Shown here in pieces: positions 9,863 through 15,724 of a DNA stretch of 44,129 bases. Positions within the stretch are counted from its first letter, which is position 1, and each line of letters starts with the position of its first letter. The notes below the pieces were generated by a model, which saw only the letters and a program-made list of their open reading frames with translations, made no database searches and had not been told where the DNA came from. Both the position numbers and the translations under genes were made by a program. The stretch is from positions 1-44,129 of the forward strand of contig JBAXAJ010000006.1 in the NCBI GenBank assembly GCA_037142555.1, given 5' to 3'. The stretch is from Candidatus Shapirobacteria bacterium (GTDB lineage Bacteria > Patescibacteriota > Microgenomatia > UBA12405).

Positions 9863-10378
9863 ATGAAATCAAAAATAATTATTTCGTTTTTAATATTAGC
9901 TTTAATATCTTTTTCAAAACCAGTTTTTGCTAAAGATGCCACTCCAAGTTCAAAAGGAGTTATTAATCAGATAAAACAAGAAATTAAAAATGACAAACAA
10001 GAAATTAAAATTGAAAAGAAAGAAATTAAACAAGAAATAAAAAGCAAGAAAGCACAAGCTATTTTTAATGTCGTTAAAATGGGTCTAAACAAAAGACACC
10101 AAGCTCTATTAAAAATTAAAGCCAAATTAGAAGCCAGAATGGCTAAAAACCCAATGAATAAAGATCTAGCTAAGGCTAAGATTGAACTAGCTAATTTTGA
10201 TGCTGCCGAAGCTAAATACCAAGCCGACCTAAAAGCTCTTGATACAAAATCAAATAAAGAGGTGAGAGGAAGTGTCAACCTATTAAGACAAGATTTAAAT
10301 AATATTAAAAAAGTTTTAAGGAACACTACTGTTGCTCTAGCTCAAGCACCAAAATTAGAAGTTACAAAAACTCAATAA
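9863..10378 (+). CDS. Secreted Lys-rich coiled-coil hypothetical protein
   Basis: Signal peptide ending VFA; QEIK repeats. Confidence 0.7.
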   Translation: MKSKIIISFLILALISFSKPVFAKDATPSSKGVINQIKQEIKNDKQEIKIEKKEIKQEIKSKKAQAIFNVVKMGLNKRHQALLKIKAKLEARMAKNPMNKDLAKAKIELANFDAAEAKYQADLKALDTKSNKEVRGSVNLLRQDLNNIKKVLRNTTVALAQAPKLEVTKTQ

Positions 10379-10380
10379 CT

Positions 10381-10644
10381 ATGAAAAATAAATTTTTAAT
10401 TTTTTCTTTTTTAATCGTTTCTGCTCTGGTTTTTTCTGGTTGTACCCTTAAGGATCAAGCTGAATCAAAGGTACTTAATAAAATTAATAACAAAGTTGAT
10501 CAAAAAATTGAAGAAAATTCAAAAGATGTAGTTAATAAAGAAACTGGTGATGACAGTGAAGCTGAAATTTTAAAACAAATCGATGCTGACACCGACACTG
10601 GTTTTGAAGCTGAACTCAAAAGTTTAGACACGGAAGCTAACTAA
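10381..10644 (+). CDS. Small lipoprotein
   Basis: Lipobox FSGC after a hydrophobic signal. Confidence 0.75.
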   Translation: MKNKFLIFSFLIVSALVFSGCTLKDQAESKVLNKINNKVDQKIEENSKDVVNKETGDDSEAEILKQIDADTDTGFEAELKSLDTEAN

Positions 10645-11255
10645 TGATTAAAGTTTTCGTTTTTGACATTGGTAATGTAGTTTGGGAATTCAAACCACTC
10701 TATGATCGACTTTTCACCATTTGGGCCAGCCGTTTGAACAAAACTTTTGTTGAGATGCGCCTAGATTTTGCAAAATCTTATCAAGACATAGAAATTGAAA
10801 AAATATCAATTGAAGATTGGCTCCTATCTTTAAATCCCAATATTGACATAAAACTTTTCTTGTCTGACCTTGAAACTGTTTTTTCTGATGAAAAAACTTT
10901 CACTTCTTATTTTTTTCCAGAAACTATTAAGCTTTTATTAAAGCTAAAATCTCAAAATATTCCTTTAATCTGTTTATCTAACACCGAAGCTCTTATTTAT
11001 CCTTATTTCAAAAAATTTATAATCGACCCTTATTTTGATCATTCAATTCTTTCTTGGCAAGTTGGAATTCGCAAACCAGAACTTGGAATCTATCAAAAAA
11101 TATTTGATTTCGTTCAAGTTCAACCAAATGAAGTTATTTTTATTGATGATAAGCCGGAAAATGTGGCTGCTGCCAAGTCTCTTGGCATAAATGCTCTGCT
11201 TTTTGAAAATAATCAAAAGCTTCTTCAAGATATTGACACCTACCAAAATTCTTAA
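10644..11255 (+). CDS. HAD-family phosphatase (YihX-like)
   Basis: FDIGNV, LSNT, RKP, FIDD..ENV motifs. Confidence 0.9.
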   Translation: MIKVFVFDIGNVVWEFKPLYDRLFTIWASRLNKTFVEMRLDFAKSYQDIEIEKISIEDWLLSLNPNIDIKLFLSDLETVFSDEKTFTSYFFPETIKLLLKLKSQNIPLICLSNTEALIYPYFKKFIIDPYFDHSILSWQVGIRKPELGIYQKIFDFVQVQPNEVIFIDDKPENVAAAKSLGINALLFENNQKLLQDIDTYQNS

Positions 11256-11261
11256 TATAAT
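11233..11261 (+). promoter_or_regulatory. Consensus sigma70 promoter of the Fe-S operon
   Basis: TTGACA (11233-38), 17 nt, TATAAT (11256-61). Confidence 0.85.
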
Positions 11262-11262
11262 A

Positions 11263-11287
11263 AATTCGGACAACATTAGTCCGAATT
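11263..11287. promoter_or_regulatory. 9-7-9 inverted repeat, probable Rrf2 operator
   Basis: AATTCGGAC-aacatta-GTCCGAATT between the -10 box and ATG 11291. Confidence 0.75.
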
Positions 11288-11290
11288 AAT

Positions 11291-12817
11291 ATGTATATAT
11301 CTACTAAATCACGATATGGTCTTCGCGCTCTGTCCAATTTACTTGGTCAAGATTGTTGTTCTGTCAAAAAAATTGCTCAAAAAGAGCATCTTTCTCCAGA
11401 TTATCTAGAAAAAATTTTTTCTCGTCTCAAAAAAGCCGGAATTCTAAAAGTTGTCAGAGGTGCCAATGGTGGTTATGTCTTGAATAATGAAGCTAAAAAC
11501 ATCACTCTTAAACAAGTAATCGATGCTCTTGAAAAGGCCGAATTCTCTTGTCCTAATTTTTGTGCCTGCAACAGCAAATCTGTTTGGCAAAAAATTCAAG
11601 CTGGTTTTAATCAAGTTCTAGAATCATTAAGCTTGGCTGATCTAGATGAAAATGAAGAAAAAGAGATTTATCTTGATTATGCAGCTTCAACTCCAATCGA
11701 CCCAGAAGTTTTAAAAACTATGTTGCCATATTTTTCTCAAAAATATTCAGGCAACACCATGTCTCTCCATTCTTTTGGTTCAAAATCATCTCAAATTGTT
11801 GAAACTTGTCGTCAAACTTTTGCCAAAATTTTAAATGTTTTACCAAAAGAAATAATTTTCACCGCTTCTGCCACTGAAAGTAATAATACTGTTTTAAAGG
11901 GAATTGCTTTTGCTAATCAAAAAAAAGGTAAACACATAATTATTTCTTCAATTGAACATGATTGTGTTCTAGAATCCGCCAATTGGTTGAAAACTCAAGG
12001 TTTTGAAATCAGTAAAATTTCAGTCGATAAATATGGTCTTTTAAATCTAGATGAACTCAAAAAAACTATTCGACCAGACACAATTTTAGTTTCTGTGATC
12101 CATGGGAATAATGAAATTGGCACTGTCCAAGATCTCGAAAGTATCGGTCAAATTTGTAAAGATAGAGGAGTTTATTTCCATACTGATGCTTCCCAAAGTT
12201 TCACTAAAGTTCCTCTTGATCTATCAAAATTAAACATTGATCTTTTGACTGCTTCTTCTCACAAAATTTATGGTCCAAAAGGCAGCGCTCTTCTCTATAT
12301 CAAAACTGGCACTAAAATCACTCCACTTCTTCATGGTGGTGGTCATGAGTTTGGTCTACGATCTTCAACTCTAAATCTCCCATCAATTGTTGCTTTCACT
12401 AAAGCCGCCGAAATTGCCACCGCTAATTTTAGTCAAGAAAATAAAGATTTAATCAAACTTCGAGATTATTTAATCAAAAACATTTTAAAATCTATTCCAG
12501 ATTCTTTTCTAAATGGTCATCCAACCAAACGTCTTTCAAATAATATAAATATTTCTTTTGCCAGAGTTGAAGGGGAATCTCTTCTTCTCGAACTCGATTT
12601 CTACAAGATCGCCGTTTCCACTGGTTCTGCTTGTTCTTCCTCTTCACTTGAACCTAGTCATGTTCTCCTAGCTACTGGTCTCAAACCAGAACAGGCTCAT
12701 GGTTCTCTTCGTTTCAGCATCGGTCGCTTCACTACAAAAACAGAAATAGATTATTTATTAAAAGTTTTACCTCAAGTTATTAATAAATTTAGGCAACTTT
12801 CGCCTTTCAAAAAATAA
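11291..12817 (+). CDS. iscS: Fusion of an Rrf2/IscR-like regulator (about aa 1-118) and an IscS/NifS cysteine desulfurase
   Basis: STKSRYGLRAL, YLEKIFSRLKKAG...RGANGGY, CPNFCAC; then YLDYAASTP, SSHKIYGPKG (PLP Lys), STGSACSS (catalytic Cys). Confidence 0.93.
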   Translation: MYISTKSRYGLRALSNLLGQDCCSVKKIAQKEHLSPDYLEKIFSRLKKAGILKVVRGANGGYVLNNEAKNITLKQVIDALEKAEFSCPNFCACNSKSVWQKIQAGFNQVLESLSLADLDENEEKEIYLDYAASTPIDPEVLKTMLPYFSQKYSGNTMSLHSFGSKSSQIVETCRQTFAKILNVLPKEIIFTASATESNNTVLKGIAFANQKKGKHIIISSIEHDCVLESANWLKTQGFEISKISVDKYGLLNLDELKKTIRPDTILVSVIHGNNEIGTVQDLESIGQICKDRGVYFHTDASQSFTKVPLDLSKLNIDLLTASSHKIYGPKGSALLYIKTGTKITPLLHGGGHEFGLRSSTLNLPSIVAFTKAAEIATANFSQENKDLIKLRDYLIKNILKSIPDSFLNGHPTKRLSNNINISFARVEGESLLLELDFYKIAVSTGSACSSSSLEPSHVLLATGLKPEQAHGSLRFSIGRFTTKTEIDYLLKVLPQVINKFRQLSPFKK

Positions 12818-12819
12818 TT

Positions 12820-13272
12820 ATGTACTCTCAAAAAGTTCTAGAACATTTCCGAACCCCCCATAATTTTGGTTCCATGGATAATCCAAGCACTATTGGTCAA
12901 GTTGGCAATTTAGCTTGTGGTGATGTCATGAAGCTCTATCTAAAAATTGCAAAAAATTCAAAAGGACAAGAATTCATTAAAGATATTAAGTTTGAAACTC
13001 TTGGTTGTGCCGCTGCCATTGCCACCAGCAGTGTTGTCACTGATCTGGCTAAAAATAAGACTCTAGAAGAAGCTATAGAAATCAAAAATGAAGATGTGGT
13101 TAAAGCTCTAGATGACTTGCCAACTATTAAAATTCATTGTTCACTCCTAGCTGTTGATGCTCTGGTTGAAGCTATCTATAACTATTATCAAAAAACAGGT
13201 CAAAAAATCTCTCCTGATTTTGAGAAAAAACATAATCGAATTATAACCTGTCAAAGTCGATTAAAACATTAA
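12820..13272 (+). CDS. iscU: Fe-S cluster scaffold IscU/NifU
   Basis: YSQKVLEHF, ACGDVM, GCAAAIA, KIHCS. Confidence 0.95.
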   Translation: MYSQKVLEHFRTPHNFGSMDNPSTIGQVGNLACGDVMKLYLKIAKNSKGQEFIKDIKFETLGCAAAIATSSVVTDLAKNKTLEEAIEIKNEDVVKALDDLPTIKIHCSLLAVDALVEAIYNYYQKTGQKISPDFEKKHNRIITCQSRLKH

Positions 13273-13296
13273 AAATTAAGGTAAAATATAAAAACT

Positions 13297-13752
13297 ATGT
13301 TCCTAGTTCAACCAATTTACGCTCAATGTCCAGTCTGCATCGTCACTGTTGGCGGTGGAATGTTTCTTGCTGAAAAGTTAGGAATCGATTCTCTTTTAAT
13401 TAATATTTGGATTGGTGGTTTTAATGCCGTCATCGGTTATTGGCTAGCTTCAAAATTCAAAAACAGAATTCTTAGAAACCCAATCATTTTATCTATAATT
13501 CTCTATGGCTTCACCCTATTTTATTTCTATCTAACCAAAGAAATAAATTTTAAAGACAGCATTCTAGGCATAGATAAAATCCTTCTAGGTGAAACTCTAG
13601 GTTTAGTCAGTGTTTTCATCGGCAACTTTTTAAATATCTATCTTAAAAAAAGAAATGGCGACAAAGTTTTCTTCCCGTATCAAAAAGTTGTCTTTCCTTT
13701 TTCTCTCTTAATAATCTTCACTATCTTATTCAAATTAATTTTTAAACTATAA
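13297..13752 (+). CDS. Membrane protein with an N-terminal CPVC motif
   Basis: AQCPVCIVTVGGG...GIDS, about four TM helices. Confidence 0.75.
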   Translation: MFLVQPIYAQCPVCIVTVGGGMFLAEKLGIDSLLINIWIGGFNAVIGYWLASKFKNRILRNPIILSIILYGFTLFYFYLTKEINFKDSILGIDKILLGETLGLVSVFIGNFLNIYLKKRNGDKVFFPYQKVVFPFSLLIIFTILFKLIFKL

Positions 13753-13754
13753 CT

Positions 13755-14270
13755 ATGACCAACGCAAAAGACCTTCAAAAATTTATTGATAAAGCTAAAA
13801 AAATCGAAAAAGGTCATAATCTAGACCTATCTTTAGGTGAAGATCTCTCAGTTGCCATCATGAATCTAATTGGGATTGAAGAACACATGTTTTTTACTTC
13901 TCAAAAACTTGGTGACACTAAATATCTTGATGTTCTAGATTCAGCCAGAGAAATGAGAAAAGAATTAATGAAAAAAATTGTTAAAGAAGGCCAAGGTGAA
14001 GTTTGGTGCACCAGCAAACATCTCTTATCAGCTTCAATGAGATTAATGGAAGTGGGGACTAAATGCATAACCAAAGGTGACAAGAAAGAAGCCAACGATT
14101 ATTTCAAAAAATCTTTTGATCTATACAACCTTTTTTGGGGTTTAAACCTAGGCATGGTCAAAGCCGACCCTCAAAAGGCTAAATTTGATGAAAAACCACT
14201 TCCTAAAAAAGATCTCTTTGGCTCAATAAGTCAGACTGTCGGAAAACTTCTCGATTGTTGTCGTGAATAG
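13755..14270 (+). CDS. Hypothetical helical protein with EEH, WCxxKH and a C-terminal DCCRE motif
   Basis: ORF 2 nt downstream of the previous gene; Cys/His motifs. Confidence 0.75.
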   Translation: MTNAKDLQKFIDKAKKIEKGHNLDLSLGEDLSVAIMNLIGIEEHMFFTSQKLGDTKYLDVLDSAREMRKELMKKIVKEGQGEVWCTSKHLLSASMRLMEVGTKCITKGDKKEANDYFKKSFDLYNLFWGLNLGMVKADPQKAKFDEKPLPKKDLFGSISQTVGKLLDCCRE

Positions 14271-14309
14271 CTAAAATTGGCTATACAACACCCGCTAGAA
14301 CCAACGTAA

Positions 14310-14957
14310 TTAAATTTTAGCAATCTCACTAAGTTTAACCATATCTTTAACCACGATTTTTCGGCCTTTATTATATAAAAAGCCTTCTTTTTGTAGTTTT
14401 AAAATTTGCAAAGTCACAGTTTCCCTTGTCAAACCAGTCATACTAGCTAAAATTCGGTGAGGAGTTTTAAAATCAACCACAGTTTCACCATCTTTTAATT
14501 CTCCAAATTTCTCTAAATGGCTACAAATCAAGGATGCGACTTTAGTGTAAGCATCACCAAAGATTAATTTTTGTAGATTATTAGTTAAATCAAGAAAATC
14601 AGCCAAAACCGATTGTACTAAATTCTTATAAAGATCATCATCTTGCTTAACAAAGTCAATAAATTCTTTTTCTGGAGTCATCCAAACTTCCATTGGGCTG
14701 ATAGCTTGAACAAAATATTTGTTTTCTTTATTTAACAAAACATTAGTTAAAGATATTAAAAATAAAGCTTTTAAAATTGGCAAAGTAACTTCTTTTCCAT
14801 CTTTAGTGACACTGTAGACTCGGACATAACCACTTTTTTCGAATAAAACATTAGAAATCTTTTCACCTGGCTTCAAAATAATTTGCCCTTTCTTAATTTT
14901 TACAGCCTTATTTTTTTCAAAAAATCCAACTAGTTGTTTTTTAGTTTTTTCGTTCAT
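14310..14957 (-). CDS. CRP/FNR family transcriptional regulator
   Basis: cNMP-binding barrel (SGYVRVYSVTKDGKE) and HTH LASMTGLTRETVT. Confidence 0.92.
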   Translation of the reverse strand: MNEKTKKQLVGFFEKNKAVKIKKGQIILKPGEKISNVLFEKSGYVRVYSVTKDGKEVTLPILKALFLISLTNVLLNKENKYFVQAISPMEVWMTPEKEFIDFVKQDDDLYKNLVQSVLADFLDLTNNLQKLIFGDAYTKVASLICSHLEKFGELKDGETVVDFKTPHRILASMTGLTRETVTLQILKLQKEGFLYNKGRKIVVKDMVKLSEIAKI

Positions 14958-15064: not shown

Positions 15065-15724
15065 CTAAATTCTATATCCATATCCATAAACAGATTTAAT
15101 ATATTCGTCATTAGTGATTAATTTTAATTTCTTTCTTAGTCTTCTTATGTGAACATCAATCGTGTTTGAATTATAGTAACCATCAACTCCCCAAACATGC
15201 TCATATAATTCTTCTCTTGGGACTAATTTACCTCGATTAACCGCCAAATATTTTAAAAGCATATATTCTTGCCTAGGCAATTTAATAATTTGGTTATGAT
15301 AAGTCACATATTGGTCATCCAATTTAATCAAAAGTTTCCCAACGGACAAATTTCCAAGTGTTTTATTGTTATTTCGTCTCAACAAAGCCCTGATTCTAGC
15401 TTCAAGTTCATCAAGAGAAAATGGTTTTATTAAACAATCATCAGCTCCAGCGTCCAAAGCCTCAATAACAATTTCTTTCTTTTGATTATTAACAAAAAAC
15501 AATATTGGCACTTTAATGTCCATTTCTCTAATTTTTTCACAAATTTTTGTCTCATTTGTATTAGCTAAATAATGGCCAATAATCAATAAATCATATTCTT
15601 TACTTTCAATTTTCAAAATTCCGTCTCGACAAGTGTTAGCTATGTCCACATTGTAGTGAGACTTTAATTTTTCCCTAACAGCCAGAGATAATTCATGATT
15701 ATTTTCAATATATAAAATATTCAT
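15065..15724 (-). CDS. OmpR/PhoB-family response regulator with a degenerate receiver domain
   Basis: GADDCLIKPF, wHTH NTIDVHIRRLRKKL...VYGYGY; phospho-Asp position is Gly (DLLIIG). Confidence 0.9.
   Translation of the reverse strand: MNILYIENNHELSLAVREKLKSHYNVDIANTCRDGILKIESKEYDLLIIGHYLANTNETKICEKIREMDIKVPILFFVNNQKKEIVIEALDAGADDCLIKPFSLDELEARIRALLRRNNNKTLGNLSVGKLLIKLDDQYVTYHNQIIKLPRQEYMLLKYLAVNRGKLVPREELYEHVWGVDGYYNSNTIDVHIRRLRKKLKLITNDEYIKSVYGYGYRI

Follow-up and report, generated by a model that had tools for sequence, protein, structure and literature searches.

The 44,129-nucleotide (nt) stretch of a Candidatus Shapirobacteria genome analysed here (the window; contig JBAXAJ010000006.1 of assembly GCA_037142555.1) carries a gene in which an Rrf2/IscR-like regulator and an IscS-type cysteine desulfurase share one open frame, preceded by a palindrome at its promoter and followed directly by the scaffold gene iscU. 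Judged by domain matches, the 0.78-Mb Patescibacteria genome has no cysteine desulfurase and no Rrf2 regulator other than this polypeptide. The reading that we favour, at a probability of roughly 0.65, is that it is a natural autorepressing IscR-IscS enzyme that senses iron-sulfur (Fe-S) clusters and runs a minimal two-gene Fe-S system. The features concerned, in positions of the window and with protein lengths in amino acids (aa), are the following.

11233..11261, plus strand: sigma-70-type promoter, with TTGACA at 11233-11238, a 17-nt spacer and TATAAT at 11256-11261 (12/12 match)
11263..11287, no strand: 25-bp candidate operator, a perfect 9-7-9 palindrome with the core TCGGAC-N7-GTCCGA (conserved at promoters)
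11291..12817, plus strand: fused iscR-iscS gene, a single open frame of 508 codons plus stop
11297..11644, plus strand: Rrf2 winged-helix DNA-binding and dimerisation domain, residues 3-118 (Pfam, NCBIfam)
11549..11569, plus strand: cysteine triad C87-x3-C91-x-C93, presumed Fe-S ligands (invariance in fused proteins)
11645..11665, plus strand: linker DENEEKE, residues 119-125, the fusion junction (translated sequence, DNA alignment)
11666..12757, plus strand: type I (IscS/NifS) cysteine desulfurase domain, residues 126-489 (Pfam, NCBIfam, alignment, model)
12263-12265, plus strand: pyridoxal phosphate (PLP) lysine K325, in SSHKIYGPKG (aligned with solved IscS chains)
12632-12634, plus strand: catalytic cysteine C448, in STGSACSS (aligned with solved IscS chains)
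12820..13272, plus strand: iscU scaffold gene, 150 aa, starting 2 nt past the fusion stop (NifU_N, 140.4 bits)

A first reading of the window, made from its sequence only, had described a 508-aa frame joining an Rrf2 winged helix to an intact IscS. The description holds: no stop interrupts the frame, both Pfam domains, K325 and C448 are present, and the motifs CPNFCAC and DENEEKE are read at residues 87-93 and 119-125, the junction running ...SLSLADL-DENEEKE-IYLDYAAS.... Residues 3-118 match the Rrf2 family PF02082 at 98.3 bits against a cut-off of 30, and the head also reaches the NCBIfam Rrf2 family TIGR00738 (92.6 vs 73.3 bits). Residues 126-489 match Aminotran_5 at 277.9 bits; this part reaches the IscS subfamily NF002806 (346.9 vs 304) and lies below the equivalog cut-offs of TIGR03402 NifS (495.7 vs 530.75) and TIGR02006 IscS (435.9 vs 643.2). 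K325 and C448 are invariant in all 31 fused proteins compared. An AlphaFold model based on a 138-row alignment (predicted local distance difference test score 95.1, predicted template modelling score 0.84) places helices at residues 5-15, 25-31 and 36-48, strands at 52-55 and 61-64, and helices at 73-80 and 95-112, giving the head a predicted winged helix-turn-helix followed by a long dimerisation helix. With this model as the query, Foldseek retrieved NFS1 and the IscS proteins of E. coli and A. fulgidus at template modelling scores (target) of 0.91-0.97 and root-mean-square deviations of 1.3-1.8, and no solved structure with the two-part architecture, the longest chain covering 399 of the 508 columns. 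By sequence, the best solved matches to the enzyme part are 4eb5 and 4r5f. As the catalytic residues are intact and the genome has no other such enzyme, the C-terminal part would be an ordinary PLP-dependent desulfurase feeding the adjacent IscU.

The fusion is real and conserved, and no assembly artefact, because the same frame (an Rrf2 domain within a frame of at least 507 aa) is open in 15 of the 38 genomes of the genus. A sixteenth fused genome, G015, seemed to carry a deletion, which proved to be a gap of 100 Ns and the only break in its frame. Full-length matches without stops were found in 12 of 41 related genomes, and 53 of the best 120 database proteins combine Rrf2 with Aminotran_5, as would be expected of the conserved fusions for which the sequence-only reading had proposed to search. 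These fused proteins are 65-81% identical to that of the window (its own entry excepted) and are drawn from NCBI, JGI, ENA and Logan assemblies; the source names on related proteins are Candidatus Shapirobacteria and Woesebacteria, which are groups within Patescibacteria. Read support at the linker revealed no stop or frameshift. Contigs of a possible source run span 11100-13300 at depth 30 without any difference, insertion or deletion, which does not amount to independent support. Two other runs yielded contigs without differences, of 197 nt over 11477-11673 (X3) and of 231 nt over 11669-11899 (X2), which show that the gene is present and fall short of the 31 letters on both sides of the linker's end by which bridging was defined.

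Beyond the genus, no fusion was found in 94 further genomes of the order (132 in total). One 542-aa frame, in G122, was rejected as a candidate, since a glycosyltransferase gene and an independent Rrf2 gene are connected there by a run of Ns. Of 400 other genomes sampled evenly from the phylum, 75 have an Rrf2 gene, and the frames that contain the domain do not exceed 221 aa. At the DNA level, none of the 27 and 18 full-span matches listed for P0121 and P0142, two predicted fused proteins from other clusters, is fused; all are split, at no more than 59% identity, and iscR and iscS are thus normally separate neighbours, as had been assumed at the outset. About half of the genus itself has neither the fusion nor a close IscS (for example, G001, G004, G011, G020, G021 and G024). 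These members carry a distant desulfurase (approximately 32% identical) and, at a distance of 0.4 to 1.6 kb, a separate Rrf2 gene of 130-135 aa, so that the genus harbours two different Fe-S gene sets.

The host genome, 776,848 bp in 23 contigs, is 99.2% complete, and the fusion holds its only Rrf2 domain and its only strong Aminotran_5 domain, the second match reaching 26.1 bits. No match to the SufBD core, A-type carrier, HscB or Nfu (PF01458, PF01521, PF07743 and PF01106) was found in this genome. By its gene content, it would therefore have a two-gene, desulfurase-scaffold Fe-S system, and the minimal IscS-IscU system postulated by the sequence-only reading is borne out. The scaffold gene directly follows the fusion in all 16 fused loci.

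The promoter at 11233-11261 is the sole 12/12 hit among 14 promoter-like matches in 10500-14400, the other 13 scoring 9/12. The number of matches is not above that in shuffles (13.0 +/- 3.4), and what is remarkable is therefore the perfection of this one match. The palindrome, consisting of two perfect 9-nt arms and a 7-nt spacer, extends from 2 nt past the -10 hexamer to 3 nt before the ATG and covers the expected transcription start. A pattern scan of the genome that allowed up to one mismatch found its CGGAC-N7-GTCCG core at this place only and revealed no second operator box. The shorter GGAC-N7-GTCC has five sites, compared with about 1.7 estimated by chance; apart from the operator itself, they fall within coding sequence or between flanks that bear no relation to it, and the one at position 66521 of contig C3 is located between divergent genes with no evident tie to Fe-S metabolism.

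In all 16 fused genomes, the promoter carries a site that agrees with the core GGAC...GTCC in 7 or more of its 8 bases; in 13 of them the agreement is 8/8, and 10 of the 25 operator columns are invariant. All 16 also have a TTGAC(A/G) -35 element at a fixed distance from the operator, in one of 2 layouts. In layout A (9 genomes, including that of the window), the -35 element lies 30-31 nt before the operator, and the -10 element ends just before it. In layout B (7 genomes; loci L006, L007, L008, L010, L016, L196 and L200), the -35 element lies 14 nt before the operator, whose spacer supplies a TAAAAT -10 element, and the ATG follows 8 nt after the latter, overlapping the last 2 nt of the operator; this suggests a leaderless message with its start codon inside the repressor footprint. 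The gene upstream of the fusion varies, being a haloacid dehalogenase (HAD) hydrolase gene in the window and fpg in most fused genomes. In layout B, only 5-8 of the 9 arm positions pair, with the half-site cores unchanged. As the pairing drifts while the cores are invariant and the adjacent synonymous divergence (dS) is about 1, the operator is conserved as a sequence and not as a hairpin. The same site stands at the promoter of G012, a relative in which the two genes are split, and among five Rrf2 promoters taken from other families of the order, two show comparable 9-7-9 palindromes of their own; the operator therefore predates the fusion. By hand count, the window site agrees with the IscR Type-1 consensus at 15 of 25 positions and the layout-B site of G010, G042 and G043 at 22 of 25, compared with 68% and 76% for two functional sites of Pseudomonas aeruginosa (PMC6599224). 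Type-1 sites are bound with higher affinity by cluster-loaded IscR (PMC6599224). Both the perfect promoter and the palindrome over the expected start had been picked out in the sequence-only reading, and the presence of the latter in 16 of 16 fused genomes is the stronger argument against chance. Kept across two promoter layouts and varied upstream genes, the palindrome behaves as the operator it was proposed to be, and not as a chance hairpin or terminator, insofar as comparison of sequences can support such a role.

The regulator half shows the conservation expected of a DNA-binding protein. All 31 fused proteins compared share, without exception, the residues of the recognition helix YLEKIF (Y38-F43) and of the wing RG..GGY (R56, G57, G60-Y62). 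Across the 105 pairs of 15 fused genomes (G015 was left out for its N gap), the median ratio of nonsynonymous to synonymous divergence (dN/dS) is 0.19 for the Rrf2 part (maximum 0.39) and 0.16 for the IscS part, with dS near 1, indicating that the Rrf2 part is under purifying selection. The head retains the equivalent of IscR Glu43, whereas the positions of the base-contacting Ser40 and Gln44 of IscR are occupied by Asp and Lys, which fits the different flanks of the site (PMC9338935). The fusion is the only Rrf2 protein above the cut-off in all 15 fused genomes; therefore, if the conserved box is an Rrf2 box, it would be the fusion that binds it. Because the operator is conserved, the fusion is the sole Rrf2 protein and its head is under purifying selection, repression of its own promoter is likely, and the autorepression proposed from the window is well supported by the comparison.

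According to the favoured reading, a small indel in the stop-start overlap of iscR and iscS would have joined the two genes; the enzyme half would be the cell's only desulfurase and supply the neighbouring IscU, and the Rrf2 head, as a dimer on the 25-bp palindrome over the start site, would repress iscRS-iscU. By analogy with IscR at Type-1 sites, DNA binding would need an Fe-S cluster on the C87/C91/C93 triad, so that when clusters are scarce, the cluster would be lost, repression relieved and the operon turned on. The fusion would fix the ratio of regulator to enzyme at one to one and hold the sensor, by a tether of about 7 residues, close to the machinery that makes its cofactor, an added effect that may be neutral or may be the point.

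The split relative has a canonical C-x6-C-x5-C loop, of which the fused proteins lack 13 residues and hence the first cysteine. C87 and C93 correspond to the second and third cysteines of the canonical loop, still spaced by x5, and C91 is new between them; all three are invariant in 31 of 31 fused proteins (52 of 52 by eye), and one, P0051, retains the long loop together with the new cysteine. A third thiol regained after a deletion is the pattern expected of cluster ligands. It also speaks against an alternative that we consider unlikely, namely that the operator-bound head is a thiol or persulfide switch, in which the triad, perhaps with a CC(C) run at residues 22-24, would be persulfidated or oxidised by way of the mobile persulfide-carrying loop of IscS, and the protein would report sulfur flux or redox state. 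Such a switch would accommodate the non-canonical ligand set (one canonical cysteine lost, no histidine and a compressed spacing), the catalytic cysteine of IscS on the same chain a 7-residue tether away, and the two or three cysteines at residues 22-24 of most of the 52 fused proteins, but the last of these are not universal, the motif missing in P0036, and the operator resembles the Type-1 box that cluster-loaded IscR prefers (PMC6599224).

The origin of the fusion was read off aligned junctions, not by reconstruction. In G012, the IscS part of which is 75% identical, the Rrf2 gene ends in ...SENE-stop, and the IscS start codon overlaps the stop within ATGAATAA. Of seven fused genes aligned with it at the DNA level, six have a 1-nt gap in this overlap and then read ...K-N-K..., N-K being residues 2-3 of the split IscS; the former IscS ATG is now AAA or AAG in 6 of the 7. 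The junction in the window is arranged differently, with an out-of-frame ATG that persists and GAA at the former stop position. These junctions fit a fusion of two translationally coupled genes, iscR and iscS, through a small indel in their 8-nt stop-start overlap. The acidic linker DENEEKE noted in the sequence-only reading is present in the window, but its sequence is not conserved, most orthologues having S/T-K-N-K instead. In other members of the order, as well as in unrelated lineages, the two genes lie side by side, often in frame and with a single stop between them; therefore, the raw material for such fusions is common. In-frame pairs separated by one stop were seen at L037, L039, L041, L042 and L047 (Lachnospiraceae and relatives) as well as at L120, L146, L147, L156 and L168, and a single point mutation would be enough to fuse them.

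Several observations count against the favoured reading. All 16 fused genomes come from one genus and hence are not independent witnesses. The head fails the IscR equivalog models TIGR02010 (71.3 vs 207.55 bits) and NF008110 (49 vs 275). We know of no characterised Rrf2 cluster site with a C-x3-C-x-C spacing. No histidine is found three residues after C93, where E. coli IscR has a ligand, and the ligand set of the latter, Cys92/Cys98/Cys104/His107 (PMC6599224), is not reproduced; in NsrR, the fourth ligand, Asp8, is borrowed from the partner chain (PMC5411485). Made in the same amount as an abundant enzyme, the repressor would saturate a lone operator, unless most of it stays off the DNA, and given the very short tether, it may be questionable whether IscS and Rrf2 dimers form within the same chain pair. 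Furthermore, in a tree of the IscS domain of the first 99 of the best 120 proteins (P0086, in which the domain-start motif was not located, was dropped, and six rows with short N-terminal extensions were left unlabelled), the window protein belongs to a clade of 15 rows (Shimodaira-Hasegawa-like approximate likelihood ratio test support 97), in which 12 stand-alone IscS proteins of 388 aa are nested among fused ones. One clade uniting all 53 fused rows, a group named only after the tree was seen, is rejected (log-likelihood 317 lower; p = 2.6e-61 in the approximately unbiased test). On this tree, the fused state is evolutionarily unstable. The database contains stand-alone IscS proteins up to 86% identical, but no stand-alone Rrf2 protein more than 41% identical to the head was found in it, and because stand-alone copies of this Rrf2 type are missing, close relatives seem to have shed the head. 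In genomes of the family, no stand-alone 388-aa IscS was found, the best match, 90% identical, lying inside a fused frame. The tree and the missing stand-alone head caution against a strong adaptive story.

A bolder version of the favoured reading, which we put forward as tentative and somewhat improbable, would make the protein a self-contained Fe-S homeostat, in which IscS-IscU loads or strips the head in cis and promoter occupancy reports the state of the machine instead of the free cluster pool. The two dimer interfaces, each with its own two-fold axis and linked by the approximately 7-residue tether, may not fit within one chain pair; if they do not, DNA binding would need two enzyme dimers, which would make repression concentration dependent or produce higher-order assemblies on the DNA.

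The instability of the fused state bears on a further alternative, quite unlikely in our judgement, that linker cleavage or an internal IscS start yields a free regulator and a free enzyme, the fusion being without consequence. Repeated switching between the fused and unfused states among close relatives suggests little cost or gain, and a fused molybdopterin synthase is reported to need cleavage for activity (PMC4326299). The junctions speak otherwise: the former IscS start codon is replaced in 6 of the 7 aligned fused genes and the ATG is out of frame in the window, no in-frame start with a ribosome-binding site is evident at the junction, and the linker has no conserved sequence to serve as a cleavage site.

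Very unlikely, too, is a head without regulatory function, that is, a cluster-binding or docking appendage of IscS, with the palindrome a relic or the site of another factor. Close stand-alone IscS proteins exist without an equally close stand-alone Rrf2 protein, and a Crp/Fnr-family regulator is encoded 1.5 kb downstream. However, a dispensable appendage would hardly keep an invariant recognition helix and wing at a dN/dS of 0.19, nor would a relic persist in 16 of 16 fused genomes despite the change in promoter layout; in both its size and its core, the site corresponds to an Rrf2/IscR box, the fusion is the sole Rrf2 protein of the genomes concerned, and we take the palindrome at 11263-11287 to be unlike a Crp/Fnr site. 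A function of the palindrome at the RNA level, be it in terminating the upstream gene or in controlling translation through a hairpin in the 5' untranslated region, is the least probable alternative, for although it folds at -12.7 kcal/mol (z-score -3.79) and looks terminator-like on the minus strand in a consensus scan, no minus-strand gene enters it, no T run follows it on the plus strand, the upstream gene varies while the distance to the -35 element is fixed, layout B loses pairing while keeping the cores, and a transcript starting about 7 nt after the -10 element would presumably lack most of the left arm; the consensus scan, together with the comparison of promoters across the fused genomes, led us to discard the terminator.

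The fusion, probably autorepressing, is a variant of the known IscR/IscS feedback loop. Like E. coli IscR, it is an Rrf2-family protein, presumably dimeric, encoded at the head of an Fe-S assembly operon (the autoregulated iscRSUA in E. coli). Its promoter bears a 25-bp palindromic box, the core of which is of the GACT-N5-AGTC type in IscR (PMC6599224), and it has three cysteines ahead of the dimerisation helix and the Glu43 equivalent. The head lies directly upstream of iscS-iscU, as IscR does, but is here fused to IscS, the genes being adjacent in split relatives. Unlike E. coli IscR, it has a C-x3-C-x-C triad without histidine in place of C92/C98/C104/H107, no SUF system to switch to, and no second box found in the genome. 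Its closest solved Rrf2 relative by sequence is 4cic_A (E 9.2e-20 over residues 2-123), which we take to be the IscR of the Gram-positive bacterium Thermincola potens, encoded in a short iscRSU operon; that protein is separate, and its cysteine loop is approximately 10 residues longer. Bacillus subtilis CymR is likewise an Rrf2 regulator, its chains 2y75 and 3t8r forming the second-best class of solved matches, but the triad aligns with non-cysteine residues in both. The analogy with the CymR-CysK complex drawn in the sequence-only reading does not stand, with NF047409 at 90.8 vs 195 bits and the best cysK match of the genome (TIGR01139) at 39.8 vs 350.95.

PutA and BirA are trigger enzymes with their own DNA-binding domain. 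The archaeal riboflavin kinase/regulator RbkR also carries one (PMC5397151). As in these three, a pathway enzyme and a transcription factor for the pathway genes share one chain in the fusion; in PutA, BirA and RbkR, it is the substrate or product state of the enzyme that controls DNA binding, whereas the fusion has a separate presumed sensor, the cysteine triad, and a regulator that formerly stood alone at the same operon. In consisting of a desulfurase and a scaffold without chaperones or carriers, the system resembles the IscS-IscU pair of A. fulgidus (4eb5) and the MisS-MisU pair of the 'minimal iron-sulfur system' (MIS), which PMC13066941 describes as just such a pair; the account of MIS consulted there mentions no regulator and no fusion.

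A literature search conducted mostly without subscription journals brought up no description of a fusion between Rrf2 and a desulfurase, and by word search, Rrf2, fused, fusion and chimeric are absent from a review of bacterial cysteine desulfurases (PMC8300815). The architecture does not appear to be unique to this genus, the other cases being predicted proteins: a search with residues 1-200 against 1.84 billion representatives, followed by a Pfam check, yielded 16 other 50%-identity clusters carrying both domains, 32-43% identical to the query, one of which has 1,875 members in its 90%-identity cluster, and in the ESM Atlas both families are common in three clusters. Fused proteins that bear names are labelled only 'IscS subfamily cysteine desulfurase' or 'cysteine desulfurase'. 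One 396-aa entry, P0052 ('cysteine desulfurase family protein'), begins only within the final helix of the Rrf2 part and shares its junction with the intact 511-aa fused frame of G043 (L196); therefore, a start called too late can hide the fusion in annotation. Other domain combinations were also seen: P0194 (515 aa) is a natural IscS-IscU fusion with Aminotran_5 and NifU_N, P0227 (654 aa) combines MoCF_biosynth with Aminotran_5, and P0067 (672 aa), on a long tree branch, has PF00814 before Rrf2 and Aminotran_5 and is probably a merged gene call, although it could be a triple fusion.

How IscR gains and loses its cluster relative to other client proteins is at the core of Fe-S homeostasis and, to our knowledge, has so far been studied only with free IscR. 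A sensor tied one to one to the desulfurase, in a cell with a single two-gene system and a single operator found, is a ready-made test case, and the finding is surprising mainly as such a natural experiment, in which the sensor is tethered to the machine. It raises the questions of whether the proximity of IscS-IscU alters cluster loading, how control can be graded by a repressor as abundant as the enzyme, and which oligomer forms when two dimerising modules share a short tether. The sequences also trace a route to the fusion, for which a small indel at the stop-start overlap suffices, with the cluster site rebuilt after a loop deletion. If the fusion is functionally neutral, it is a clean example of gene fusion in a reduced genome, with limited wider interest.

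Two further genes follow iscU in the window.

13297-13752, plus strand: 151-aa membrane-like protein with an N-terminal QCPVC (no Pfam family)
13755-14270, plus strand: 171-aa protein ending in LLDCCRE (no Pfam family)

They are found after iscU in 13 and 12 of the 16 fused loci, respectively, within the 1.5-kb flank, and because the gaps are short, both may share the Fe-S operon. Across the genus, the 171-aa protein shows 72-91% identity, a degree of conservation close to that of IscS, and the ESM Atlas has it in 'hypothetical' clusters only. Converging on the end of the Fe-S gene cluster, the Crp/Fnr-family regulator (14310-14957, minus strand; cNMP_binding and HTH_Crp_2) shows no N-terminal cysteine cluster when its translation is read by eye; the distance between iscU and a Crp homologue is shorter in G005 and G014. 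The next minus-strand frame beyond it, at 15065-15724 of the window, reads like a response regulator by eye. On the other side of the fusion, between fpg and the HAD hydrolase gene, 9863-10378 encodes a different protein of 171 aa, which begins like a signal peptide and contains a lysine-rich repeat (KQEIK and similar).

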